From positions 12,168-76,167 of the forward strand of contig CANQVX010000009.1 of NCBI GenBank assembly GCA_947627355.1: a DNA stretch of 64,000 bases, written 5' to 3'. Within the stretch, counting starts at the first letter, position 1. Each line of letters opens with the position of its first letter. The notes under the pieces were generated by a model. It saw only the letters and a list, made by a program, of their open reading frames with translations. It did not search any database and was not told the DNA's origin. This document shows positions 5,797 through 63,045 of this stretch, one piece after another. This stretch comes from an uncultured Bacilli bacterium (GTDB lineage: Bacteria > Bacillota_I > Bacilli_A > RFN20 > CAG-631). A program made the position numbers and the translations under genes.

Positions 5797-6780
5797 CTAA
5801 CTTTCGCTATTCGTCACATTGTTTTCTTGTCTTTGTTTTAAGATTTCTTCTGTTTTTTCTTTAATCATTTGTTCGCGTTTAGCTTGTAATTCTTTTTCTT
5901 TTTCAATTGAATATTTGTTGGTATATAGATTTGGATAAGTTTTATCTTTGTAATAAAATCTAGCAAATATCATAAGACCAACACCACAAACGATAAACAA
6001 AATAGATGTAAAAATACTTAATGGCATATTGCCAATTTTCATGATAAATTCTTCGTCTCTGAATGGTTCTAAAATAACGCGAACTAAACCATACCAAATT
6101 AAATAACATGCACATAAATCACATGGTTTACGATATTTTTTCCAGAAGTTTCTAAGAACAACGGCAATTAAAATAAAACCAATTAGATTTAAAACTGATT
6201 CATATAAGAATAATGGTTGATTTACTTCATTTAATGCACAAGCTCCACCACTTGAAATATTATTTAAAATAAACTTTGGTAAGAACCATAATTTAGATGC
6301 TCTAACACAACCACCATAAACTTCTTGATTCATAAAATTGCCCCATCTACCGATAATTTGACCGATTAAGATGCTTGGAACAATTGTATCTAGATGATAT
6401 GAAAAAGGAATATCTTTATATTTTTTATGTAAGAAAATCCAACCAAATAAAATACCAGCCATAACACCACCTTGAATGGCTAGTCCTCCACTTACTGGAT
6501 TTATGATATATAAAAAATCTTTTCCTTTAAATTGCTCTAAATCACCTAAAACATACCATAAACGAGCACCAATAATAGCAATTGGAATTACTAATACAAA
6601 AAATGTATCATACATTGATGCAATCTTATTATCTTTTTTAAGTAAATGTCTAGTCCATAAAAAAGCTAAAATGGCGCCAGTTAAAATAAATATAGCATAC
6701 CATCTAATTTCAAGTGAACCGATTCTAATTGCAATAGCTCGGTCATTTGTTGAATTTGGAAACCAAGCAAATGGAAACAT
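5797..6780 (-). CDS. lgt: prolipoprotein diacylglyceryl transferase, with ~45-aa Lys/Glu-rich C-terminal tail
   Basis: Lgt signature region (FPFAWF...IRWYAIFILTG, GRWGNF); start placed at ATG 6780 because GAGGTG RBS lies 6 nt upstream whereas ORF-track start 6813 has none. Confidence 0.85.
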   Translation of the reverse strand: MFPFAWFPNSTNDRAIAIRIGSLEIRWYAIFILTGAILAFLWTRHLLKKDNKIASMYDTFFVLVIPIAIIGARLWYVLGDLEQFKGKDFLYIINPVSGGLAIQGGVMAGILFGWIFLHKKYKDIPFSYHLDTIVPSILIGQIIGRWGNFMNQEVYGGCVRASKLWFLPKFILNNISSGGACALNEVNQPLFLYESVLNLIGFILIAVVLRNFWKKYRKPCDLCACYLIWYGLVRVILEPFRDEEFIMKIGNMPLSIFTSILFIVCGVGLMIFARFYYKDKTYPNLYTNKYSIEKEKELQAKREQMIKEKTEEILKQRQENNVTNSES

Positions 6781-6848
6781 AAAAACACCTCGTTTCAATA
6801 AGTATATTAGCACATTTTATTTATTTAATAAATAAAAGTTTTTTAAAT

Positions 6849-9680
6849 TCACTTTAAATAGTCTTTTAAGAATTTACCTGTATAACTCTTTTCACATTTT
6901 GCAACTTTTTCAGGTGTTCCAGTAACTACTACTCTTCCACCTTCATTACCACCTTCAGGTCCTAAATCGATAATATAATCAGCGACTTTAATAATATCCA
7001 TGTTATGTTCAATTAATAAGATGCTATCTTTATTATCAACAATACGATTTAAAACTGAAATCAATTTTTTAACATCATGAATATGTAAGCCAGTAGTTGG
7101 TTCATCTAGAATAAATAAAGTTTTACCAGTGGCTTTCTTTTGAAGTTCATAAGCAAGTTTAATACGTTGAGCTTCACCACCAGATAATGTTAAAGCATTT
7201 TGGCCAAGTTTAATATAATTAAGGCCAACATCCATTAAAACTTTTAATTTATTTCTAATAGCTGGTACATTTGAAAAGAATTCATAGGCTGTTTCAACAT
7301 CCATATCTAATACTTCATAGATGTTTTTACCTTTATAGGTAACAGCAAGAGTTTCTTCATTATATCTTTTACCATGACATTCTTCACAAGGAACATAGAC
7401 ATCTGGTAAAAATTGCATTGGTACACGAATAACGCCATCACCTTGACAACGTTCGCATCTACCACCTTTAACATTAAATGTAAAACGACTCTTAGTATAA
7501 CCTCTTTCTTTGGCTTCAATAGTTGATGCAAAAGCATCACGAATAGGATCAAAAACACCAGTATAAGTAGCTGGATTACTACGAGGAGTTCTACCAATTG
7601 GATCTTGACTTACATTTACTACTTTATCAATGTTTTCGATACCTAGAATTTGTTTACATTTACCAGGTTTAAGTTTCTTTTTATAAATAGTTGAATATAA
7701 AGTTTTATATAAAATTTCATTAACTAATGTTGACTTCCCACTACCTGAAACACCAGTTACAACACAAAATGTATTTAAAGGTATTTCAACATTAATATTT
7801 TTCAAATTATTCTCGGAAGCACCGACAATTTTTAATGTTTTACCATTGCCTTTACGACGTTTATTTGGTACTTCAATCTTATATTCTCCACTCAAATATT
7901 TACCAGTGATTGATTCTTTAGAGTTCATGATATCTTCAACTGTTCCTTGTCCAACAATTTTACCACCATTGATACCAGCAAGAGGACCAATATCTACGAT
8001 ATGATCGGCACTTCTAATGGTTTCTTCATCATGTTCAACAACAATCATAGTATTACCTAAATCTCGCATTTGTTTTAAAGTATCTATTAATTTTTGATTA
8101 TCTCTTTGATGAAGTCCAATACTAGGTTCATCTAAAACATATAAAACTCCAGTTAGTTTAGAACCAATTTGAGTGGCTAATCTAATACGTTGAGCTTCAC
8201 CACCAGATAACGTCGAAGCTGTACGATGTAAAGTTAAATAAGATAAACCAACATTAACTAAGAATTGTAGTCTATTTTTAATTTCAGCAATTAATAATCT
8301 TGATATTTCTTGTTGTTGAGGACTTAATTCAAGTTCATCAAAGAATTTAAGAATATCACTAATAGGCATTTTTGTTAATTCTGCAATGTTTTTATTGCCA
8401 ATTAATACTGCTAAAGCTTTTTCATTTAAACGATCACCATGACAAGTTTGACATTCTTTTTCAATAATAAAATTTTCATACCAATTTCTCATCAATTCAG
8501 ATTCAGTCTCACTATATAATCTTTCGATATGAACTTTAGCACCTTCAATATAACCATATTTTTTTCTAATTGTTCCACCACGTGAATGGGTTTCATATCT
8601 AATTGGTTCATCAGAACCATATAAAACATAATGTTTTTCTTTTTCAGTTAGATCTTTATATGGCTTATCGATATCGATATTGTAATGTTTACATAAATTA
8701 TCTAATTCTTGCCAGTCAAGATTTTCACCATTTTCGTTATATTTATAGAAAGCAATGGCACCTTGCTTAATTGATAAATTCTTGTTAGGAATTAATAAAT
8801 CAACATCCATTTCAAGTTTAACACCTAGCCCTTTACAATCTTTACATGCACCAATTGGGGCATTAAATGAAAATAATCTAGGTTCAAGTTTAGGAATTGT
8901 GAAACCGCATTCTTTACAAGCATAGTTTTCTGAAAAATGTACGATTTCATCAGCAATTTTTACATCTGCTATACCATTTGCTTCTTTTAAAGCCACTTCT
9001 AAAGCTTCAACAAGTCTAGTTCTATTTTCTTCATTTAGGGCCATTCTATCGACAATTATGTCAACGTTATGATTTTTATTTTTATCAATTTCTAAATCCA
9101 GAGCATCTTCAACACGAATCATTTCACCATCGATTTGAACACGTGAAAAACCATTCTTTAAACATTTTTCTAATAAATCTTTTTGAGTTCCTTTTTTTCT
9201 TATAACCACTGGAGCTAAAACTTGAATCTTACTTCCAAGAGGATATGTATAAATTGTTTTAACCATTTCAGTAATTGTTTGACCAACGATAGGGATATGA
9301 TGGGTAGGACAATAAGGAACACCAATACGAGCATAAAGCAACCTTAAATAATCATAGATTTCAGTAACTGTGCCAACTGTTGAACGAGGATTATGACTAG
9401 TAGTTTTTTGATCAATTGAAATAGCAGGGGATAACCCTTCGATAGATTCAACATCAGGTTTATTAATTCCACCTAAAAAAGTTCTAGCATAAGGTGATAA
9501 AGATTCAACATATCTTCTTTGTCCTTCACCATAGATGGTATCAAATGCTAAAGTAGTCTTTCCGCTACCAGAAAGACCAGTCATAACAATTAATTTATTT
9601 TTAGGAAGTTCTAAAGAAATATTTTTAAGATTGTTTTCTTTAGCACCTTTTATAATTATTTTATCGTTCATAAAACCCAC
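6849..9680 (-). CDS. uvrA: excinuclease ABC subunit A
   Basis: 943 aa; two ABC ATPase modules (GLSGSGKTTL / GVSGSGKSTL), zinc-finger Cys clusters. Confidence 0.95.
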   Translation of the reverse strand: MGFMNDKIIIKGAKENNLKNISLELPKNKLIVMTGLSGSGKTTLAFDTIYGEGQRRYVESLSPYARTFLGGINKPDVESIEGLSPAISIDQKTTSHNPRSTVGTVTEIYDYLRLLYARIGVPYCPTHHIPIVGQTITEMVKTIYTYPLGSKIQVLAPVVIRKKGTQKDLLEKCLKNGFSRVQIDGEMIRVEDALDLEIDKNKNHNVDIIVDRMALNEENRTRLVEALEVALKEANGIADVKIADEIVHFSENYACKECGFTIPKLEPRLFSFNAPIGACKDCKGLGVKLEMDVDLLIPNKNLSIKQGAIAFYKYNENGENLDWQELDNLCKHYNIDIDKPYKDLTEKEKHYVLYGSDEPIRYETHSRGGTIRKKYGYIEGAKVHIERLYSETESELMRNWYENFIIEKECQTCHGDRLNEKALAVLIGNKNIAELTKMPISDILKFFDELELSPQQQEISRLLIAEIKNRLQFLVNVGLSYLTLHRTASTLSGGEAQRIRLATQIGSKLTGVLYVLDEPSIGLHQRDNQKLIDTLKQMRDLGNTMIVVEHDEETIRSADHIVDIGPLAGINGGKIVGQGTVEDIMNSKESITGKYLSGEYKIEVPNKRRKGNGKTLKIVGASENNLKNINVEIPLNTFCVVTGVSGSGKSTLVNEILYKTLYSTIYKKKLKPGKCKQILGIENIDKVVNVSQDPIGRTPRSNPATYTGVFDPIRDAFASTIEAKERGYTKSRFTFNVKGGRCERCQGDGVIRVPMQFLPDVYVPCEECHGKRYNEETLAVTYKGKNIYEVLDMDVETAYEFFSNVPAIRNKLKVLMDVGLNYIKLGQNALTLSGGEAQRIKLAYELQKKATGKTLFILDEPTTGLHIHDVKKLISVLNRIVDNKDSILLIEHNMDIIKVADYIIDLGPEGGNEGGRVVVTGTPEKVAKCEKSYTGKFLKDYLK

Positions 9681-10029: not shown

Positions 10030-11214
10030 TTATTCAATAATTTCTGTTACGTTTCCAGCGCCAACTGTACGTCCACCTTCACGAATAGAGAAACGAGTTC
10101 CTTTTTCTACTGCGATTGGGTGAATTAATTCTACAGTCATTTCTACGTTATCACCAGGCATAACCATTTCAACACCTTCAGGTAATTCGATTACGCCAGT
10201 AACGTCTGTAGTTCTGAAATAGAATTGAGGACGGTAGTTTTTGAAGAATGGTTTATGACGGCCACCTTCATCTTTAGATAGAACGTAAACATGAGCAGTG
10301 AATTTGTGATGAGGATGAACAGTTCCAGGTTTTACTAAAACTTGTCCACGGATAACTTCATCACGGTTAATACCACGAAGTAAAGCACCAATATTATCAC
10401 CAGCGCGAGCTTCGTCTAGTAATTTACGGAACATTTCAATACCAGTTACAACTGTTTTTTGAGTTTCACGAATACCAACGATTTCAACTGGTTCGCCAAG
10501 TTTTAAAGTACCTCTTTCAACACGGCCAGTAACAACTGTTCCACGACCAGTGATTGTCATAACGTCTTCAATTGGCATTAAGAATGGTTTATCTACATCA
10601 CGAACAGGTGTAGGAATAAATGTATCTACAGCTTCCATTAATTCAACGATTTTTTGTTTCCATTTTGGATCGCCTTCAAGAGCTTTTAATGCTGAACCAC
10701 GAATTACAGGTGCATCGTCTCCAGGGAATTCATATTCATTTAACATTTCACGAACTTCCATTTCAACTAAGTCTAGTAATTCATCATCATCAACCATATC
10801 ACATTTATTTAAGAATACTACGATGTAAGGTACTCCTACTTGACGTGATAATAAGATGTGTTCACGAGTTTGAGGCATAGGTCCATCAGTTGCAGCAACA
10901 ACTAGGATAGCTCCATCCATTTGTGCAGCACCAGTAATCATGTTTTTAACATAGTCAGCGTGTCCTGGGCAGTCAACGTGTGCATAGTGACGAGTTGCTG
11001 TTTGATATTCAACATGAGCTGTGTTAATCGTGATACCACGTGCTTTTTCTTCTGGTGCTTTATCGATTTGATCATAACGAGTGTATTCAGCACCACCAAC
11101 TTCAGCTAAAACCATTGTAATAGCAGCTGTTAAAGTTGTTTTTCCATGGTCAACGTGACCAATTGTTCCAATGTTAACATGTGGCTTACTTCTATCAAAT
11201 TTTTCTTTTGCCAT
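10030..11214 (-). CDS. tuf: elongation factor Tu
   Basis: 394 aa, [18 protein letters not shown] GTPase motifs; unmistakable EF-Tu. Confidence 0.97.
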
Positions 11215-11308
11215 ATTTTTGTTTTTCCTCCTAAATTTTTCTTTTCTTTTACTATTTTAATAAATTTTATAATGAAAATCAATATATTTAATAATTTATT
11301 GACTTTTA

Positions 11309-13375
11309 TTATTTTCCTTTGGTAAGTTTTTCAACTACTGAGGCTGGAGCTTGTTCGTAGCGTGAAAATTGCATTGAGAAAATTCCTCTACCTTGAGTGA
11401 TTGAACGTAAGGTTGTAGCATAACCAAACATTTCTGAAAGTGGTAATGAAGCATGAATGATTTGAGCATTTTCCTTGTTTTCAAAACCATCAATACTACC
11501 TCTTTTAGCCGAGATATTTCCCATTACATCACCCACATATTCTTGAGGAACAATTACTTCAACTGACATAATTGGTTCAAGAATAACTGGATTACATTTT
11601 CTAGCGGCTTCTTTTAAAGCTAGAGAAGCAGCGATACGATAAGCAGCTTCACTTGAATCGACATCGTGATATGAACCATCAAATAAAGTAGCTTTGATAT
11701 CAATTGCTGGATAGCCAGCAACTAGACCACCAGTCATAGCATCGATAAGTCCTTCTTTTGTTGGACGAATGAATTCTTTTGGAACTGTACCACCAACAAT
11801 GGCATCAACAAATTCAAAACCTTTGCCAGGGTTTGGTTCAAACTTAATCCAAACGTGACCATATTGACCTTTACCACCACTTTGACGAACATAACGTCCT
11901 TCACAATCAGCTGATTGTAAAATGGTTTCACGGTATGCAACTTGAGGAGCACCGATATTTGCTTCTACTTTAAATTCTCTTTTTAAACGATCAACGATAA
12001 TTTCTAGATGTAATTCACCCATACCACTGATAACTGTTTGACCTGTTTCGGCATCAGTTTTAGTTTTGAATGTTGGATCTTCTTCAGCAAGTTTTGCTAA
12101 AGCAATTGCTAGTTTATCTTGATCATTTTTAGATTTTGGTTCAATAGCTTGCGAAATAACTGGTTCTGGAAAGACCATAGATTCTAATGTAACTGGGAAA
12201 TTTTCATCAGTTAAAGTATCACCAGTTGAAACATCTTTAAAACCAATTGCAGCAGCAATATCGCCACTATAAACCTGGTTGATTTCTTTTCTTGAATTAG
12301 AATGCATTTGAAGTACACGACTGAATCTTTCTTTTTTACCTTTTGAAGAGTTATAAACATAACTTCCAGCAGTAATTGAACCAGAATATACTCTAAAGAA
12401 TGTTAATTTACCAACGAATGGATCAACCATGATTTTAAATGCTAAAGCAACGAATGGTCCTTCATCATTTGGAATACATTGAACTACTTCACCACTGCTA
12501 TTTAAAGTACCAGTTGCTGGTTGAATATCAAGTGGAGAAGGAAGGTAGTCAACTATTGCATCAAGTAATAATTGAATACCTTTATTTTTATATGAAGCAC
12601 CACATAAAACCGGGAAGAATTCGCCGGTCAAAACGCCTTTTCTGATAGCGTTTTTGATGTCTTGAATAGTTAATTCTTCGCCTGATAAATATTTTTCACA
12701 AAATACATCATCGAATGAAGAAATTGCTTCAAATAAAAGTGTTCTTAATTCTTCTACTTTATCATTAAATTCACTAGGAACTTCTTCAACACTGATTTTA
12801 GTTCCCATATCATCGTTGTAATAATATGCCTTTCTTTCGATAATATCGATAATTCCATGGAATTGATTTTCTCTTCCAATCGGATATTGAATCGCACAAG
12901 CATTGGCATTTAATCTTTTATGCATTGAAGCAACACACATTTCAAAGTCTGCTCCAATCGCATCTAACTTGTTTGCAAATACGATACGAGGGACATTATA
13001 CTTACTACCTTGGCGCCAAACGGTTTCAGTTTGTGATTCAACACCATTTTTACCATCTAAAACGGTAACAGCTCCATCAAGAACTCTTAGAGATCTTTCA
13101 ACTTCTGCTGTGAAATCTACGTGTCCTGGAGTGTCAATGATATTAATTCGATGACCTTTCCATTCAGCAGTAGTTGCTGCACTGGTAATTGTAATACCTC
13201 TTTCTCTTTCTTGTTCCATCCAGTCCATGGTAGCAGCACCATCATGTACTTCACCCATACGATGATTTACACCTGTAAAAAACAATATTCTTTCAGTTGT
13301 TGTTGTTTTTCCAGCATCGATATGTGCCATAATACCAATATTTCTTGTGTTTTCTAAACTAAATTTTCGCGCCAT
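11309..13375 (-). CDS. fusA: elongation factor G
   Basis: 688 aa; [17 protein letters not shown] motifs, full EF-G domain complement. Confidence 0.97.
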
Positions 13376-36668: not shown

Positions 36669-36779
36669 TGTTATTTCACCTCAATTCATTCTATGAATTG
36701 ATATGCCATAACATGAAAAACATTTTATTAATGTTTTTTTAAGGTTTTTTTGATATACTTTAAATCGAGGTGCAAATTT

Positions 36780-38531
36780 ATGAAAATTCAACGAGTCCTA
36801 CTATTGAGTTTATTTTGTGTTGCTTCCCTTACATCATGTAATGAAAATTCAAACGAAATAAGCGTTTTACCATCTGTTGAACCTTTTAAAAACCAAGCTG
36901 AAGTTCGCTTCAGTTCTACTTTAGAATACACAACAGAAGATACTATCGGATATAAGATGCTTGTTCCATATACTGATACTTATCAAGTTAACTTTGGTAG
37001 TGTTGTTAAAAGTTATACTATTTTTGATGAAATTGGCAACGAAATCGAACAATCAACTAAATCTTTTGTAACAACCGAACTTCAAAAAGATAGTAGGATC
37101 TATGTTGTCCTAGAAGTTTTAAAGAATCATATCATTGAAACAACTGTTAAAGCTGTTAACCATGAAGCTGTTTTACCATATGATGTTGAATTTAGTCATA
37201 AACCAACCGATTTTAAAACAACAGGGGCTGCTAGTAGAAAAGCCACTGAAATAAAATATGTTAAAAGACCTAATGCCACATATGTTAATTCAAACAATCC
37301 AGAATTATTAACTAATGCTGATTTAAATCAAGCATTAACTAGAAATAATGTTACTGGTGAAGTCTTTTTTACTTTTGAACATAACAATGGTCCAACTCAA
37401 GCATTTTATTATGGCTATCAAGTAAAAAATGTAAGTAAGAAAAATATTTATATCACAATTAAAAATGTTGGTTTTCAATTAAATGGACCCGGCAGTTGGC
37501 TAGGTGAAGATGAATGGATTCAATTTTATAATACTAAATTTAATTTTGATACTTTTAATTGGAACGAACAACAAATGAAAACATTTAATGATTATTATGG
37601 TTTTTGTAACACTTATGAACCAAATTTATATCAACCTCAAACCATAGTTTTACCACCAAATGAAAAGATTTATGTCATGGGTGGAACAACATATGATAGT
37701 TATTTAAACTTCAATGCTTTCAATACAGCAAATAAATTAGTAAATGGCGGTTGTTCAAATGGTGCTGTTTTGTTTGATGTTGCAGGAGGTACAGCCCAAG
37801 CAACATTCTATGTTTATACTAGATATGATTTAATTGCTTATGAAACAGTTCATCAAGGCTATGTGGTAGAAAGAAATGGTAAAAATTTTGGAAGTCAATA
37901 CATTGGTTATGATACATGTAATGGAATAGTTGATAATGAAATGGTATTTGAATTTGATGATTCAACAATTGCTCAAAAATTACCAGTTACATTTACAAAT
38001 TATTATCAAGATCGTGTAAGTTATAATGGTGAACCATATGCAAAAATAAATAGCACAGCTCATAAACAAACCTTAACAGCTTGGACTACCCATAGTAATC
38101 CACAATACAATAGCACAGCTGTTGGAACAGACATGACACGATATATAACAATTGATGCTGTTACTAAAGATGAAGTTGTAATTGATTCTAACCATTATGA
38201 TGGAAACGGAAACATTGCCAATATTGGTAATTGGATGATTGATTATCAAGACCGTTATAACTTTGTAAACAAAGGTGATAAAGATAGAAAGATAGTTCTT
38301 TCTGAAAATGATGGTGGTTCAATTGCTGTTATGATTCGTGATGTCACAGGTAAAATATTAGATAAAAAATATACTTTTACAAGTGTTGAAAAATTCCCAT
38401 TTAACAATGAATATTATTCTTATTTATATACCTTAGATGTTCCAGCTCATAGTGTTATTCAAATAGCAATGGAATATAATTTATTAGCTAATTCTAATGG
38501 TGGAATAAGACATACAGTAAACTTAATTTAA
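36780..38531 (+). CDS. large secreted lipoprotein, unknown function
   Basis: Signal peptide with lipobox LTSC (MKIQRVLLLSLFCVASLTSC); about 580 aa Asn/Tyr/Gly-rich beta-type sequence; no recognisable catalytic motif. Confidence 0.5.
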   Translation: MKIQRVLLLSLFCVASLTSCNENSNEISVLPSVEPFKNQAEVRFSSTLEYTTEDTIGYKMLVPYTDTYQVNFGSVVKSYTIFDEIGNEIEQSTKSFVTTELQKDSRIYVVLEVLKNHIIETTVKAVNHEAVLPYDVEFSHKPTDFKTTGAASRKATEIKYVKRPNATYVNSNNPELLTNADLNQALTRNNVTGEVFFTFEHNNGPTQAFYYGYQVKNVSKKNIYITIKNVGFQLNGPGSWLGEDEWIQFYNTKFNFDTFNWNEQQMKTFNDYYGFCNTYEPNLYQPQTIVLPPNEKIYVMGGTTYDSYLNFNAFNTANKLVNGGCSNGAVLFDVAGGTAQATFYVYTRYDLIAYETVHQGYVVERNGKNFGSQYIGYDTCNGIVDNEMVFEFDDSTIAQKLPVTFTNYYQDRVSYNGEPYAKINSTAHKQTLTAWTTHSNPQYNSTAVGTDMTRYITIDAVTKDEVVIDSNHYDGNGNIANIGNWMIDYQDRYNFVNKGDKDRKIVLSENDGGSIAVMIRDVTGKILDKKYTFTSVEKFPFNNEYYSYLYTLDVPAHSVIQIAMEYNLLANSNGGIRHTVNLI

Positions 38532-39793: not shown

Positions 39794-40306
39794 ATGAAAA
39801 AAATAGTAATCTTAGGAAATTCAGGTAGTGGAAAGTCTACTTTAACTAAAAAGTTAGCAGATCTTTTAAACATGCCTTATTTACATCTTGATACTATTGT
39901 TTGGAAACATAATTGGACTGAAAATGAATATCATGAAATAGAAAATAAAATTAAAGATTTTATCGGTCAAAGCGAATGGATTTGTGATGGAAACTTTTTA
40001 AATAAAGTACCTGAAAGATTTAGTTTATGTGATACATTTATCTTTTTAGATATTCCAAGTTATAAATGTTATTTTCGAGTTATAAAACGTTATTTTAAAT
40101 ATAAAAATAAGCCTCGCGAATCAAGAAGTATCTATTGTAATGAAAAATTAAGCCTTGATTATTTAAAATGGGTTAAGAAGGGCTTTAAAAAACAAAGCCG
40201 TCCAAGAATATTAGAAATGCTTAAAACTACCGATAAAAAGGTTATTATTTTAAAAAACAAAAAAGAGATTAAAAACTTTTTAATCTCCCTCAGTAGTGGT
40301 TTCTGA
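39794..40306 (+). CDS. P-loop NMP-kinase-like protein (topology modulation protein FlaR family)
   Basis: 170 aa; N-terminus KKIVILGNSGSGKSTL, AK-like fold signature DGNF. Confidence 0.55.
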   Translation: MKKIVILGNSGSGKSTLTKKLADLLNMPYLHLDTIVWKHNWTENEYHEIENKIKDFIGQSEWICDGNFLNKVPERFSLCDTFIFLDIPSYKCYFRVIKRYFKYKNKPRESRSIYCNEKLSLDYLKWVKKGFKKQSRPRILEMLKTTDKKVIILKNKKEIKNFLISLSSGF

Positions 40307-40633
40307 TTGAATTTCTTTATTAATTCCTAAGACATGTGAAATAGGAAGTGAAAAGATAATTCCTTGGCCTAGGCTTTCAAGACCAGCTGCTTCATAGATA
40401 GCATGTAAGATTTGATCTCTATTTTCTTTTTCAATAATTATCATAACAATTTCTTTATCTGGTGAAATAACTATGCCATAAAACTTTTCGGTTTCAGCAT
40501 TACCAGTTCCTCTAGCATTTATGATGGTGCCACCACGGGCACCATTTTGTTTTGCGGTTTCCATTACAATATCAGTAAAACCATAATTTACGATACAAAA
40601 GATTGCTTCATATTGTTGATTTAAATTATCCAT
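40280..40633 (-). CDS. PII-like (GlnB-fold) signal transduction protein, copy 2
   Basis: 117 aa from ATG 40633 (AAGGA RBS); T-loop-like RGTGNAETE and C-terminal GQGIIFSLPISHVLGI matching the PII GxGxxF...V pattern. Confidence 0.55.
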   Translation of the reverse strand: MDNLNQQYEAIFCIVNYGFTDIVMETAKQNGARGGTIINARGTGNAETEKFYGIVISPDKEIVMIIIEKENRDQILHAIYEAAGLESLGQGIIFSLPISHVLGINKEIQSETTTEGD

Positions 40634-41048
40634 TAGTTGTTCCTTCTTTCTTTTCATTTACATGGGTTAAAAATTTATACATTGTAACTCCTACCATACT
40701 TGACATAGGAATTGTAAAGGAAATACCTCTTCCTTCATTTTTTAAAACATCTTTAATTTCTTCATAAAGTGGTTCAATTAAAGATTCACTTATAACACTT
40801 AAGATGACATCTTTACTTGATTCAGCGATACCTAATAAGTTTAATAATTCAGTTGGTGCTGTTCCGCGTCCTAAAACAACCATCGAAACATGTGCGTTAT
40901 GTTCTTGAAAGATACTTATAAACTTATCGCTCTTTTTTCTTTCTACCACTGTTATCATTAATTCTAACTTATTAACTTTAACTTCAGGGTTTGGTTTTTC
41001 ATGTTTTCGTTTTAGAAATGTCGGTAGAATCGAATGTTTTTTATCCAT
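40626..41048 (-). CDS. PII-like (GlnB-fold) signal transduction protein, copy 1, with about 30-aa N-terminal extension
   Basis: Start ATG 41048 (GAAAGG RBS); core LELMITVVERKK...GRGTAPTE...GRGISFTIPMSSMVGV. Confidence 0.5.
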   Translation of the reverse strand: MDKKHSILPTFLKRKHEKPNPEVKVNKLELMITVVERKKSDKFISIFQEHNAHVSMVVLGRGTAPTELLNLLGIAESSKDVILSVISESLIEPLYEEIKDVLKNEGRGISFTIPMSSMVGVTMYKFLTHVNEKKEGTTNG

Positions 41049-41067
41049 AGTAACCATCCTTTCTTAA

Positions 41068-42576
41068 TTATTCAAAATAAATAATTTGATTTTCATTAGC
41101 AGCTTTAACTTTTCTTTTATGCAACTTAGCACGGACTTTTTCTTTCATAACCACATAGAATCCAAGTAGTTGAATAGTGATTAATGGTGTCATGGCAACC
41201 ATTGCTACGATACCAAAAGCACCAGCAAAAATATTAGTAGGATTAATAATCAAACAAGTGCCAATTGCAAAAGGTAAAATAAAGCCAGCAGTCATTGGAC
41301 CAGAAGCAACACCACCCGAGTCAAAAGCAATTGCAGTATAAACTTTTGGCACAAAAAAGCTTAATAACAAAGCAATAAAATAGCCAGGAACTAATAGCCA
41401 TAATAAACTAAAATCAAAGATAATTCTAACCATTGATAAAGCAAGTGATAAACCAACACCAATGGCTAGTCCAATAAACACAGACTTTTTAGTAATTGTT
41501 CCCCCACTTACTTCTTCAACTTGTTTATTTAAGGTATGAACCGCAGGTTCAGCAAGTACTACAAAGACACCAATAACAAAGCCAAGCGGAATCAAGAAAT
41601 ACTTAGCTTTATTTGCAAGTTGTCCACCAATATTAACACCAATAGGCATAAAGCCTACATTAACAGCAGTTAAAAATAAAACTAAACCAAAATAAGTATA
41701 TAAAATACCAATAAAGATTTTTAACAATCTCTTTTTAGGAAGTTTTACAGTACATGCTTGAAAGATATAGAAAAATACAAGTATTGGGGCTAAAGCAACA
41801 AAGACATCTTTTAAAGAATGTAACAAACCATAACATAAATCTTTAAAAATTGATCCTTTAGAAATCAAATTTAAACCATCCCAAGTTGGAGCATCTTTAA
41901 AAAAGAAACTCATAATAACTACCAATAGAATCGGACCAATTGAACATAAAGCAATCATACCAAAACTATCTTCACGATTGTTTTTTCCACCACTTACTGA
42001 AGCTATACCAACGCCTAAAGCAAGTAAAAATGGAACGGTTACTGGACCAGTTGTAACACCTCCAGCATCAAATGACAAAGGTAAATACAACTTTTTCATA
42101 AATATTACTAACAAAAATAAGATTCCATAGAAAATAAATAAAAGCAATCTTAAATCAATTTTGAAAATTATTCTAAGTAAAGATATAACTAAAAAGATAC
42201 CAACACCAACAGATACTATGATAATAAATTGAAATGTATTGATAGGTACTTGATTAGCAAGTACCGATAAATCTGGTTCAGCGATGGAAATTAATGTGCC
42301 TAGAATTAAAACAATTATGATAGCAAGCCATAACTTTTTTGATTTAATAACTTCTTCTCCAACGTGTTCACCCATTGGCGTCATTGCTATATCAGAACCT
42401 AAGGTAAATAAACCCATTCCAATAATTAAAAATAAGGAGCAAATCAAAAATTTGATAATATCTTTAGAATTACCAATGCTTACTAATCTAGAAATATGTA
42501 AAAATAAAACAATCACAACAATGGGTAATGTTGAAAAGATTGCTTCACGAATCTTTTTAAAGAATTCTCTAAGCAC
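41068..42576 (-). CDS. two-repeat polytopic membrane permease (DUF1538-like) co-encoded with two PII-like proteins
   Basis: 502 aa, GTG start with AGAGGGGAG RBS; internal duplication (MTPMGEHVGEEV / FDAGGVTTGPVTVPF / FDSGGVASGPMTAGF motifs), about 12 TM. Confidence 0.55.
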   Translation of the reverse strand: MLREFFKKIREAIFSTLPIVVIVLFLHISRLVSIGNSKDIIKFLICSLFLIIGMGLFTLGSDIAMTPMGEHVGEEVIKSKKLWLAIIIVLILGTLISIAEPDLSVLANQVPINTFQFIIIVSVGVGIFLVISLLRIIFKIDLRLLLFIFYGILFLLVIFMKKLYLPLSFDAGGVTTGPVTVPFLLALGVGIASVSGGKNNREDSFGMIALCSIGPILLVVIMSFFFKDAPTWDGLNLISKGSIFKDLCYGLLHSLKDVFVALAPILVFFYIFQACTVKLPKKRLLKIFIGILYTYFGLVLFLTAVNVGFMPIGVNIGGQLANKAKYFLIPLGFVIGVFVVLAEPAVHTLNKQVEEVSGGTITKKSVFIGLAIGVGLSLALSMVRIIFDFSLLWLLVPGYFIALLLSFFVPKVYTAIAFDSGGVASGPMTAGFILPFAIGTCLIINPTNIFAGAFGIVAMVAMTPLITIQLLGFYVVMKEKVRAKLHKRKVKAANENQIIYFE

Positions 42577-42737
42577 AAAAACAAACTCCCCTCTTCGTTT
42601 TTTATTATATTATAAAATGCTTAAAAGTTATATAACTTTTTTAGGTTTCCTTGAATTATTTTAAAATTATTTAAAAAATATATTTTTTAAATTTTATGTC
42701 GTGTTATAATAGTAACGGCAATAGGGGGATGAATTGT

Positions 42738-60158: not shown

Positions 60159-62768
60159 TTATTTGTTTTGTTTTAGTTCCTTTAATTTTTCTTCAATACT
60201 TGCTTTTCTTGATAAATAATTTTGAAGTTTTTCTTTTTCTTCTTTTATTTTATTTTCAGGAGCTTTTTCTAGAAATCTAGGATTAGATAACATTGCATTG
60301 CATCTATTAACTTCATTTATGAATTTTTCAAGTTCTGCTTCATATTTTTTAATTTCAGCTTCAACATCAACATCTTTATGGTAATTTATTAAATAATTTG
60401 CATTTTCAGTTGCTAGAATTGTGGCATTTTCATCCTTTTTATCGACAAATTTTAGATGATTGAATTGTTCAATAATAGTAGCATAATTGTCTAATAATTG
60501 TCCTATTAATGTTGATTTTTGTTCAACATTTACTTCTAATATTTCTTTATTTTTAATGTTATTTGTGTTTCGATAATTTCTAATAAATGTTGTAAGTTCA
60601 ATGATTTCATTCATTTGTTTATTAACATCTTTACTATCATTTACTTTTAAGATAGTAGGCCATGTTTCTAAACAAATTGATTTTTTAGCTTCTGGTAGTG
60701 CTTGATATAATTCTTCACTAACAAACGGAACAAAAGGATGAAGTAGGATAATAATAGCCTTTAAAGCATAATATAAAACTTGTTTGGTTGCTTCTTTAGT
60801 TTTATCATTTGCTAGATTTAACTTACTAATTTCAATATACCAAGAACAAAAATTATCCCATACTAAGGAAGTTAAATAACTACCAACATTAGCAAATTCA
60901 TATTTTTCAAGATTTTCTTCGATATTAGTTATAGCTTCATTTAATCTAACAACCATCCATTTATCCATCAAAGGTAACTTATCATAATCAAATCCAGTGA
61001 CTTTAAAATCAGCACCTAGATTCATTAAAACAAATCTAGCAGCATTCCAAATCTTGTTAATAAAGTTCCAACTAGATGATATCTTTTCACTTGAAAATCT
61101 AAAATCAATACCTGGTGCACTATTAGTAGCTAAAAAGAATCTTAAAGCATCAGCCCCATATTTATCGATAACTTCCATAGGATCAATACCATTGCCTAAT
61201 GATTTTGACATCTTACGTCCTTGTTCATCACGAATTAAACCATGAATCAAAACTTGTTTAAATGGAACCTTATCAGTAAATTCAATAGCTTCAAACATCA
61301 TTCTAGATACCCAAAAGAAAATAATATCATAAGCAGTAACTAATAAATCATTTGGATAATAACGTTTATAATCGTCTGTTATTTCAGGCCAACCTAAAGT
61401 TGTAAATGGCCATAAAGCCGATGAAAACCAAGTATCTAAAACATCTTCATCTTGAACATAGTTTTCGATATCTTTAGGAGGATTGAATGATACTAATATT
61501 TCATCGCTACCTTTTTTATAATAAGCAGGTATTCTATGTCCCCACCATAATTGACGAGAAACACACCAGTCTTCAATATTTTCTAACCATTGAATAAATA
61601 TTTTTTCAAATCTAGCTGGAAAGAATTGCACACCCTTATTATTTTTTTGTCTATCTAGAGTATTCTTTGCTAGTTTTTTCATCGAAACAAACCATTGTTT
61701 AGATAACATTGGTTCAACAATAGCATCACTACGTTCAGAATGACCCACTTGATGTAAATGAGTTTCAATCTTTTCAACTAAACCTTTGTTAGTTAATTCT
61801 TTTACCAATTCTTCACGGCATTTAAAACGATCCATACCTTCATACTTATTTGCTCTAGCATTCATAGTAGCATCTAGATTCATACAAACAATTTGTTTTA
61901 AATGATGTTTTTCACCTAGCATATAGTCATTAGGATCATGAGCTGGTGTACATTTCATAGCTCCTGTTGCAAATTCAATATCAACATATTCATCAAAAAT
62001 AATAGGTAGTAATTCATCATTAGCAGGATTTATAACCTTTTTATCTTTTAAATGTTGATATCTTTCATCCTTAGGATTAACAACAACGGCTACATCACCA
62101 AACATAGTTTCAGGTCTAGTTGTACCAACAATGATATAATCATTACTATTTTCAAGATAATAACGGAAATAATACATATGACCTTCTATTTCTTTATAGA
62201 TAACTTCAATGTTAGATAAAGCAGTCTTTAATACTGGATCCCAGTTAATTATCTTTTCTTTTCGATAGATATAACCTTTTTCATATAAAGATACAAAGAC
62301 TTTTCTAACAGCCACATTTCTTTTATCATCAAGGGTAAAGGCTTCTCTACTATAATCTAAAGACATTCCAATCTTTTTCCATTGACTACGAATAGTATTA
62401 GCATATTCTTTTTTCCATTCCCATGCTACTTTTAAGAATTCTTCACGGCCAATATCATATTTGTTGATACCTTGATCTCTTAATTTCTTTTCAATCTTTG
62501 CTTGAGTGGCAATGCCTGCATGGTCCATACCAGCAACCCATAAAACATCATAACCCTTAAGTCTTTTATAACGCATGATAACATCTTGTAAAGTGCCATT
62601 ATAAGCATGACCTAAATGTAACATACCAGTAACATTAGGTGGTGGTAAAACTACACAATAGGGCTTTTTAGTTATATCACCAGCCGTAAAATAGCCTTCT
62701 TTTACCCAGGTATCATATTTATTTTCTTCAACCTTGATATGATCATATTTAACATCTAATGTCTTCAT
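60159..62768 (-). CDS. valS: valine--tRNA ligase
   Basis: 869 aa; HLGH and KMSKS motifs, editing domain, C-terminal coiled coil. Confidence 0.97.
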   Translation of the reverse strand: MKTLDVKYDHIKVEENKYDTWVKEGYFTAGDITKKPYCVVLPPPNVTGMLHLGHAYNGTLQDVIMRYKRLKGYDVLWVAGMDHAGIATQAKIEKKLRDQGINKYDIGREEFLKVAWEWKKEYANTIRSQWKKIGMSLDYSREAFTLDDKRNVAVRKVFVSLYEKGYIYRKEKIINWDPVLKTALSNIEVIYKEIEGHMYYFRYYLENSNDYIIVGTTRPETMFGDVAVVVNPKDERYQHLKDKKVINPANDELLPIIFDEYVDIEFATGAMKCTPAHDPNDYMLGEKHHLKQIVCMNLDATMNARANKYEGMDRFKCREELVKELTNKGLVEKIETHLHQVGHSERSDAIVEPMLSKQWFVSMKKLAKNTLDRQKNNKGVQFFPARFEKIFIQWLENIEDWCVSRQLWWGHRIPAYYKKGSDEILVSFNPPKDIENYVQDEDVLDTWFSSALWPFTTLGWPEITDDYKRYYPNDLLVTAYDIIFFWVSRMMFEAIEFTDKVPFKQVLIHGLIRDEQGRKMSKSLGNGIDPMEVIDKYGADALRFFLATNSAPGIDFRFSSEKISSSWNFINKIWNAARFVLMNLGADFKVTGFDYDKLPLMDKWMVVRLNEAITNIEENLEKYEFANVGSYLTSLVWDNFCSWYIEISKLNLANDKTKEATKQVLYYALKAIIILLHPFVPFVSEELYQALPEAKKSICLETWPTILKVNDSKDVNKQMNEIIELTTFIRNYRNTNNIKNKEILEVNVEQKSTLIGQLLDNYATIIEQFNHLKFVDKKDENATILATENANYLINYHKDVDVEAEIKKYEAELEKFINEVNRCNAMLSNPRFLEKAPENKIKEEKEKLQNYLSRKASIEEKLKELKQNK

Positions 62769-63045
62769 AAATTAACCTCCTAAAAATAAAAAAACGCCCT
62801 AATTTAAGGACGCATAATATACGTGGTACCACCTTAATTTATTTGTAATAATTATTTTTACAAATACACTCATTTCCTATTAACGCTAGGACACGATTGA
62901 ACTACTTATTTTTCATTCAATGTACTCCAAGACTACCTTCAAATTGTTTCTTTATCATGTTTCAGCAAGCCATGACTCTCTAGAAAAGCAAACAATTTTA
63001 CTCCTTCTTTTCTTCGTACAAGTAAATACTACTGAAATTAATACT
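62769..63045 (-). promoter_or_regulatory. T-box riboswitch leader of valS (promoter, stem I, T-box sequence, terminator/antiterminator)
   Basis: On minus strand TTGACA promoter near 63040, AGAGA-GUC-A candidate specifier loop (GUC is a Val codon), T-box motif AATTAAGGTGGTACCACG (plus 62822-62839), terminator hairpin plus U7 (62790-62813) just before the RBS. Confidence 0.6.

Follow-up and report, generated by a model that had tools for sequence, protein, structure and literature searches.

A conserved module of a two-repeat DUF1538 permease and two PII-type proteins in an uncultured Bacilli bacterium

Does a membrane permease of an uncultured Bacilli bacterium have its own regulator in the two small proteins that are encoded directly behind it, and do these belong to the PII proteins, which are among the most widespread signal transducers? 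The question is raised by a 64,000-nucleotide (nt) stretch of contig CANQVX010000009.1 (assembly GCA_947627355.1, positions 12,168 to 76,167), which is called the window throughout. Three co-directional open reading frames (ORFs) occupy 40280-42576 on its minus strand in the order permease, pA and pB, just where a preliminary description, made from the letters alone, had placed them. In related genomes the permease is followed by an A-type gene (the family of pA) and then by a B-type gene (the family of pB), or by a fusion of the two, at all 72 loci with enough downstream DNA. Judging from such sequence comparisons, we consider it probable (about 0.6) that A and B form a complex that serves as a dedicated regulator of the permease.

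The genome scan covered one genome per species and gave 80 loci, all from Clostridia or Bacilli, with permeases 48-79% identical to that of the window; the nearest species-representative genome is that of an uncultured Bacilli metagenome-assembled genome (MAG) from rabbit gut (79%). At those with enough downstream DNA the A-type gene begins within about 20 nt of the permease end and the B-type gene comes next; four have a single A-B fusion ORF, and in one A lies inside an over-extended ORF. A metagenome scan was seeded with three sequences of the split type, in which the two DUF1538 repeats are separate genes. Every one of its 28 loci with a fused permease has A plus B (21) or an A-B tandem (7) downstream, and behind split DUF1538 pairs there is always just one B-type PII gene (32/32 resolvable loci). 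Plasmids of Methylocystis and Chelativorans likewise carry two separate DUF1538 genes and then one B-type P-II gene, and in Paraclostridium bifermentans the gene behind a fused permease encodes a 222-amino-acid (aa) two-domain "P-II family nitrogen regulator". Because genome, plasmid and metagenome loci agree, linkage to a B-type PII characterises the DUF1538 family as a whole. Fusion of the permease goes hand in hand with the number of PII domains, which is one beside split permeases and two beside fused ones. Tandems are also the rule among the best 150 pB-like representatives (at 50% identity), of which 128 have two domains, 21 a single domain and 1 three PII domains. The conservation of the three-gene arrangement that had been anticipated is seen in every resolvable relative, and these data rule out chance or an ORF artefact as the origin of the module.

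The module is very common in gut Firmicutes, including many human-gut assemblies, and is found in Proteobacteria too. DUF1538 permeases make up at least 8000 clusters at 90% identity, and A-type proteins at least 5069 clusters, which NCBI mostly labels "hypothetical protein". The genes that neighbour fused-type loci vary from locus to locus, and no other gene is conserved there. No nif genes were seen in the neighbourhood within the window or at any related locus, and genes for nitrogen or carbon assimilation are not conserved near the module.

A few irregular forms were met along the way. A protein of 357 aa (P0262) has three PII domains in one chain, A-like, B-like and B-like. A permease-PII fusion (L166 24-1277, Ga0466735_117168, 1415 bp) encodes P0324, 417 aa, in which a C-terminal DUF1538 repeat precedes two PII domains; it is one low-coverage case, either a genuine fusion or a lost stop codon, and was not used. 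In a Candidatus Scatosoma MAG (L025) the A/B pair occurs twice in inverted orientation, at 6117-6913 (+) and 6992-7788 (-), with identical scores, which is probably a palindromic assembly artefact.

In the window, the module is made up of the following features.

42586-42596, minus strand: ribosome-binding site GAAGAGGGGAG, 9 nt 5' of the permease GTG, from sequence reading
41068-42576, minus strand: permease, two-repeat DUF1538, 502 aa, GTG start at 42576
41872-42576, minus strand: DUF1538 repeat 1, residues 1-235, from half-versus-half BLASTP and conserved columns
41071-41871, minus strand: DUF1538 repeat 2, residues 236-502, with a basic C-terminal tail, on the same evidence
40626-41048, minus strand: pA, A-type divergent PII-like protein, 140 aa, whose PII core lies between a basic disordered N-tail (residues 1-26) and an additional C-terminal helix
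40280-40633, minus strand: pB, B-type PII protein, 117 aa, with an 8-nt overlap between its ATG and the pA stop (ATGGATAA)

The preliminary description had reported a GTG start behind a ribosome-binding site for the permease, and the purine-rich GAAGAGGGGAG does stand 9 nt upstream of it. It had also described the two small ORFs as overlapping. The overlap is real, but the likely starts are slightly downstream of those of the maximal ORFs (40626-41057, 143 aa, and 40280-40657, 125 aa): sequence features suggest that pA and pB begin at their second ATGs, each behind an AGGA-type ribosome-binding site. From the permease stop, TAA, there are 19 nt to the likely pA ATG at 41048, itself 8 nt after AGGA, and the likely pB ATG at 40633 has AAGGA 7 nt before it. 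Products of 502, 140 and 117 aa are likewise called on independent metagenome assemblies.

The leader 5' of the permease is about 120 bp long. Control by a riboswitch or leader element was considered and dropped, as a search with Rfam at gathering thresholds, run on the DNA 5' of the permease in the window and at 11 related loci, gave no riboswitch. Promoter and terminator scans returned sites no commoner than in shuffled sequence and are uninformative in DNA this AT-rich (G+C about 28% in the window). On the other side of the module, a convergent 170-aa P-loop kinase-like ORF with weak dNK/AAA_18 matches (39794-40306, plus strand) shares 27 nt with the 3' end of pB, and no terminator-like hairpin was seen between the two.

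The permease belongs to the DUF1538 class, as had been suspected. It matches Pfam DUF1538 (PF07556) at 427.3 bits against a gathering score of 22.6 (E 1e-128), in two stretches that span both halves, and the internal duplication read from the 502-aa chain is borne out by a BLASTP match of the N-terminal to the C-terminal half (E 5e-26, 29% identity over 211 residues). The repeat motifs quoted for it were all located, with AMTPMGEHVGEEV at residues 64-76, FDAGGVTTGPVTVPF at 169-183 and FDSGGVASGPMTAGF at 418-432. Conserved columns were taken from an 83-sequence alignment and from a cross-phylum alignment of the halves. Repeat 1 has conserved E100, D102, R135 and D170 and the motifs AMTPMGEHVG, AEPD and FDAGGVTTGP, and repeat 2 has E343, E354, R384 and D419 and the motifs GFMPIG, AEPAVH and FDSGGVASGP. 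From Firmicutes to Alphaproteobacteria, a glutamate (in AEP), an arginine and an aspartate (in FDxGGVxxGP) are invariant in each repeat. Across the 83 homologs the lysine plus arginine (K+R) content of the loops alternates between high and low, which points to a chain that crosses the membrane about 14 times and has both ends in the cytoplasm. Loops that correspond between the two repeats lie on opposite sides of the membrane (loop 1-2 has 0.6 K+R, loop 1'-2' has 4.3), so by the positive-inside rule the permease would be a 7+7 inverted repeat. An AlphaFold2 model from 83 homologs is confident, with a mean predicted local distance difference test score (pLDDT) of 83.5 and a predicted template-modelling score of 0.82, and no solved structural relative of this model was found.

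What might such a permease carry? The preliminary description took the substrate of DUF1538 proteins not to be established, but one member, which is the only characterised one, had already been assigned a function. UmpAB of Halomonas zhaodongensis is a paired DUF1538 heterodimer whose subunits have to be co-expressed, and it confers pH-dependent Na+(Li+,K+)/H+ antiport on E. coli KNabc (PMC5484666). It resembles the window permease in its PF07556 domains, its two homologous halves of seven transmembrane (TM) segments and its AEP and FDxGGVxxGP motifs. It differs in that UmpA and UmpB are separate chains, whereas both repeats lie here in a single chain of 502 aa, and split-type loci have one PII gene compared with two at the window locus. 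A PII partner was not considered in that study (PMC5484666).

Exchange of monovalent cations against protons is the substrate assignment to which we lean, tentatively and at somewhat less than even odds. It draws on UmpAB, on the invariant glutamate, arginine and aspartate of each repeat, on the genes that neighbour some split loci and on the finding that DUF1538 counts among the gene families from which growth pH can be predicted (PMC13255231). As to these neighbours, P2-type cation ATPases flank the split loci L087, L093, L094, L116 and L120, and tandem universal stress proteins (Usp) flank the split loci L095, L097, L108, L117, L122 and L123. Sporadic as they are, they hint weakly at ion and stress physiology.

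The same PII-gated design could also serve another substrate, for example an anion or a compound of nitrogen or carbon; in that case the antiport of UmpAB would be a side activity, or peculiar to the halophile clade. The established PII-transporter pairs all handle ammonium, nitrate, urea or bicarbonate, and the NCBIfam equivalog models for UmpA and UmpB (NF041627/NF041628) are widely missed, at 157.9 against 490 bits and 136.2 against 500 bits. The functional data come from a single complementation study in E. coli KNabc (PMC5484666), and the titles of papers citing it describe Na+/H+ antiport for several other, unrelated protein families. We nevertheless hold a different substrate to be rather unlikely. 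The B-type protein is without Q39 and the other 2-oxoglutarate/ATP ligands and is thus not a canonical nitrogen sensor, the surroundings of the module hold no conserved nitrogen or carbon assimilation gene, and a buried, invariant glutamate, arginine and aspartate in each repeat, together with cation-ATPase neighbours, fit ion transport.

Turning to the small proteins, pB has the PII fold by its matches in Pfam and PDB, and pA most probably has it too, by profile comparison and a predicted structure. B is a bona fide member of the Pfam family and A a divergent relative. A hidden Markov model (HMM) search with Pfam P-II (PF00543), proposed earlier as a check on both proteins, was successful for pB, which scores 33.9 bits against a gathering score of 25 and whose orthologs match in 70 cases out of 70. 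The sequence of pB matches PII proteins in PDB, GlnK/GlnB included, and a profile of the 70 orthologs has NifI1 as its top PDB match (9p1x_H, E 2.4e-7). For pA the same check gave a mixed picture: taken alone, the window protein has no match in Pfam or among PDB sequences, and of its 71 orthologs only 27 match Pfam P-II at E <=0.01. Its kinship with pB is visible in BLASTP (E 1e-8, 23% identity) and, between the A and B families, in hhalign (98.6%, E 1e-15). The AlphaFold2 model of pA (pLDDT 75) has a beta-alpha-beta-beta-alpha-beta core, a helix at 118-135 and a disordered N-terminus, and its top Foldseek matches, nearly all of them PII-like, are PstA, SbtB, CPII, TTHA0516 and GlnK. We accordingly rank pA as a probable PII member at the superfamily level, by profile and model and not by family HMM. 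Both proteins also have the GxGxxF motif noticed at the outset (GRGISF in pA, GQGIIF in pB) and share an RGT(A/G) loop base.

The first small protein does have the extra N-terminus reported for it, which comprises 26 residues ahead of beta-1, predicted to be disordered (pLDDT about 50). Throughout the A family this tail is variable in sequence and 14-50 residues long; it carries a net positive charge in 83/83 homologs (median +5), and lysine makes up 23.5% of its residues. An acidic C-tail of B was also considered and dropped as weak, being net negative in 61% of orthologs. The transporter-associated PII-like family PG0541 (NCBIfam NF045581) gave 15.5 against 45 bits for pB and no match for pA.

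If these are PII proteins, what do they bind? The residue comparison aligned pA and pB to NifI1 and to E. coli GlnB/GlnK. In pB, G27, T29, G35, G37, K58, G87, G89 and F92 are retained, and N, A, Q, I, G and N stand at R38, Q39, D88, K90, R101 and R103. In pA only G35, K58, G87, G89 and F92 are retained, and R38, Q39, K58, 87-90, R101 and R103 read P, T, K, G-R-G-I, G and T. The canonical GlnB/GlnK ligand set is thus not preserved, with K58, G87 and G89 alone kept in pA and pB, and NCBIfam PRK10858 gives 13.3 against 202. By this alignment, the basic residues that hold the ATP phosphates or 2-oxoglutarate in canonical PII proteins are missing from both A and B, which prevents the ligand from being inferred from the family. 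The nucleotide second messengers named in the preliminary description cannot be assumed either, since the GGFL motif is missing along with the canonical residues: this motif, which binds c-di-AMP in PstA according to a legend in the Borrelia BB0017 study (PMC6516651), was not found in pA or pB by sequence reading. The RefSeq partner label "P-II family nitrogen regulator" is probably misleading, given that the nitrogen-sensing residues are missing.

Loop lengths of pA and pB are nearer to those of NifI1/GlnK than to those of PstA, and the T-loop regions of A and B are about 5 residues shorter than those of GlnB. In each family the T-loop ranks with the most strongly conserved parts of the protein (GTA...LGL in A, RGTA...F.I in B), and for this reason we consider the T-loop the likely docking element.

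Taken together, we propose that the three-gene operon encodes a DUF1538 secondary transporter and a dedicated cytoplasmic regulator made of two PII-type proteins. The halves of the permease would be the fused counterpart of the UmpA/UmpB heterodimer, two oppositely oriented 7-TM halves that would exchange monovalent cations for protons. Translational coupling would supply A and B in equal amounts, and the two would assemble into one hetero-oligomer that docks through its conserved T-loops on the cytoplasmic face of the permease, where a small-molecule ligand at the subunit interfaces would switch transport on or off. B would be the better-preserved sensing subunit. A would be a degenerate partner in which the beta-2 glycine motif is gone and a polybasic N-tail and a C-terminal helix have been added, and these two additions may tether or plug the transporter.

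Placing A and B in one complex is suggested by the A-B tandem proteins and by the 8-nt overlap of pA and pB, and because such tandem fusions are widespread, the hetero-oligomer considered in the preliminary description has gained strength. That the PII partner would be dispensable for transport itself can be argued from UmpAB, which carried out antiport without any downstream gene; the cloned umpAB fragment ended with umpB yet transported, so a regulatory role of the partner fits (PMC5484666). The analysis shows the family assignments, the predicted fold of A, the repeat within the permease, the structure of the operon and the universal, co-varying linkage with its fusions; from these we infer physical binding, the direction of regulation, the ligand and the substrate, and the PII pair would accordingly be a putative gate of the permease.

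Several points weigh against this proposal. The physical link between the PII pair and the permease is deduced indirectly, and ligand-dependent switching is an assumption for proteins that are without the basic residues for ATP and 2-oxoglutarate. The UmpA/UmpB equivalog cut-offs are missed by far and the window permease is 30-35% identical to split-type halves, so its substrate may differ from that of UmpAB, the assignment of which comes from one heterologous complementation study (PMC5484666). A 2023 review on how transporters are controlled post-translationally names no transporter targets of PII proteins other than Amt, Nrt, Urt and SbtA and describes PII control as seemingly restricted to trimeric transporters; the known PII-regulated secondary transporters are trimers (PMC10710835). 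Covalent A-B units in a 1:1 ratio are at odds with a simple PII trimer.

A and B might instead act as separate homotrimers, or singly, on different faces of the permease and thereby deliver two independent inputs. The inverted repeats would offer two non-equivalent cytoplasmic surfaces, the conserved T-loops differ between A and B, and a covalent 1:1 tandem is compatible with a tethered A3 plus B3. We regard this arrangement as unlikely, since NifI1/NifI2, the only structurally known paired PII, forms mixed trimers, and since A is without the beta-2 glycine motif, which would leave interfaces made of A only without a nucleotide pocket.

The signal might also run in reverse, with DUF1538 as a transceptor that sequesters or releases A and B, whose output would be some other cytoplasmic target. 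Sequestration of GlnK at the membrane by AmtB is an established precedent (references in PMC10710835), PII proteins usually have several targets, and a module without another conserved gene leaves room for a distant one. The strict co-variation of one PII with split and two with fused permeases nevertheless speaks for a close structural fit to the permease itself. A- and B-type proteins stand only beside DUF1538 in every locus examined, and UmpAB is an active transporter (PMC5484666), which together make a reversed signal improbable.

A dedicated A/B regulator of the permease can be set beside four better-known systems. In GlnK-AmtB and SbtB-SbtA, where the PII or PII-like protein plugs or locks the transporter, a small PII-fold protein with a conserved T-loop is encoded beside a secondary transporter as it is here, and the model of pA matches SbtB structures as the sequence of pB matches GlnK/GlnB, but the window permease is of neither the Amt nor the SbtA family. 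NifI1/NifI2 are two adjacent PII paralogs, as are the adjacent and translationally coupled pA and pB; they form a 2:1 heterotrimer that inhibits nitrogenase and retains ADP, ATP and 2-oxoglutarate as ligands (PMC12439982; PDB 9p1x), whereas here the tandems imply a 1:1 ratio and the ligand residues are lost. PstA/DarA provide the top Foldseek matches of the pA model (4d3h, 4wk1) and share its Firmicute context, but identity is 12-14% and PstA is without such a transporter-linked operon. In YitT/DUF2179 membrane proteins such as Borrelia BB0017 (PMC6516651) a C-terminal PII-like module without the canonical ligand residues is likewise tied to a membrane protein, but the membrane domain is a 4-TM YitT domain, the PII-like loops are truncated and there is no sequence relation to DUF1538.

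A bolder version of the proposal is that DUF1538-linked PII proteins are a distinct branch, with a six-domain A-B assembly, a ligand other than ATP, ADP or 2-oxoglutarate, a gated transporter of new fold and the A-tail as tether or plug. Such an assembly would be unlike both PII homotrimers and the 2:1 NifI heterotrimer, and we think it doubtful that all of this holds. If it did, the one-/two-PII rule would come from a fixed geometric fit of regulator to transporter.

The linkage itself appears to be undescribed and unstudied in the searchable literature. Publications that mention DUF1538 made no mention of PII, those on PII-like proteins with transporters yielded nothing on a DUF1538 module, and the Methanococcus papers and the Borrelia BB0017 paper (PMC6516651) concern other systems. 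RefSeq annotates the individual pieces, and the gene linkage is visible in existing annotation. The module is widespread and amenable to experiment, but its logic follows established PII-transporter precedent; what is new compared with known PII-regulated transporters is an unrelated and structurally unsolved permease family, a 1:1 paired or tandem PII, the loss of ligand residues and the domain-number rule. The DUF1538 module would add a whole transporter family to the handful of PII targets. It would also provide a route to study how cation and pH homeostasis, or whatever else DUF1538 proteins transport, is tied to a metabolic signal, as well as a natural tandem or heteromeric PII for comparison with NifI1/NifI2.

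Elsewhere in the window, a T-box leader at 62803-63023 on the minus strand (136.7 bits, above the gathering score) lies directly 5' of a valyl-tRNA-synthetase-like ORF at 60159-62768 on the same strand (tRNA-synt_1 plus Val_tRNA-synt_C), an arrangement that is ordinary for Firmicutes. The sole G+C-rich stretch (10030-13375, minus strand; 0.35-0.37 compared with about 0.28) corresponds to tuf and fusA, which encode elongation factors Tu and G, and contains no rRNA. On the plus strand, the ORF at 36750-38531 encodes a candidate surface protein of 593 aa that has a lipoprotein-like N-terminus (LLSLFCVASLTSC) and matches nothing in Pfam.

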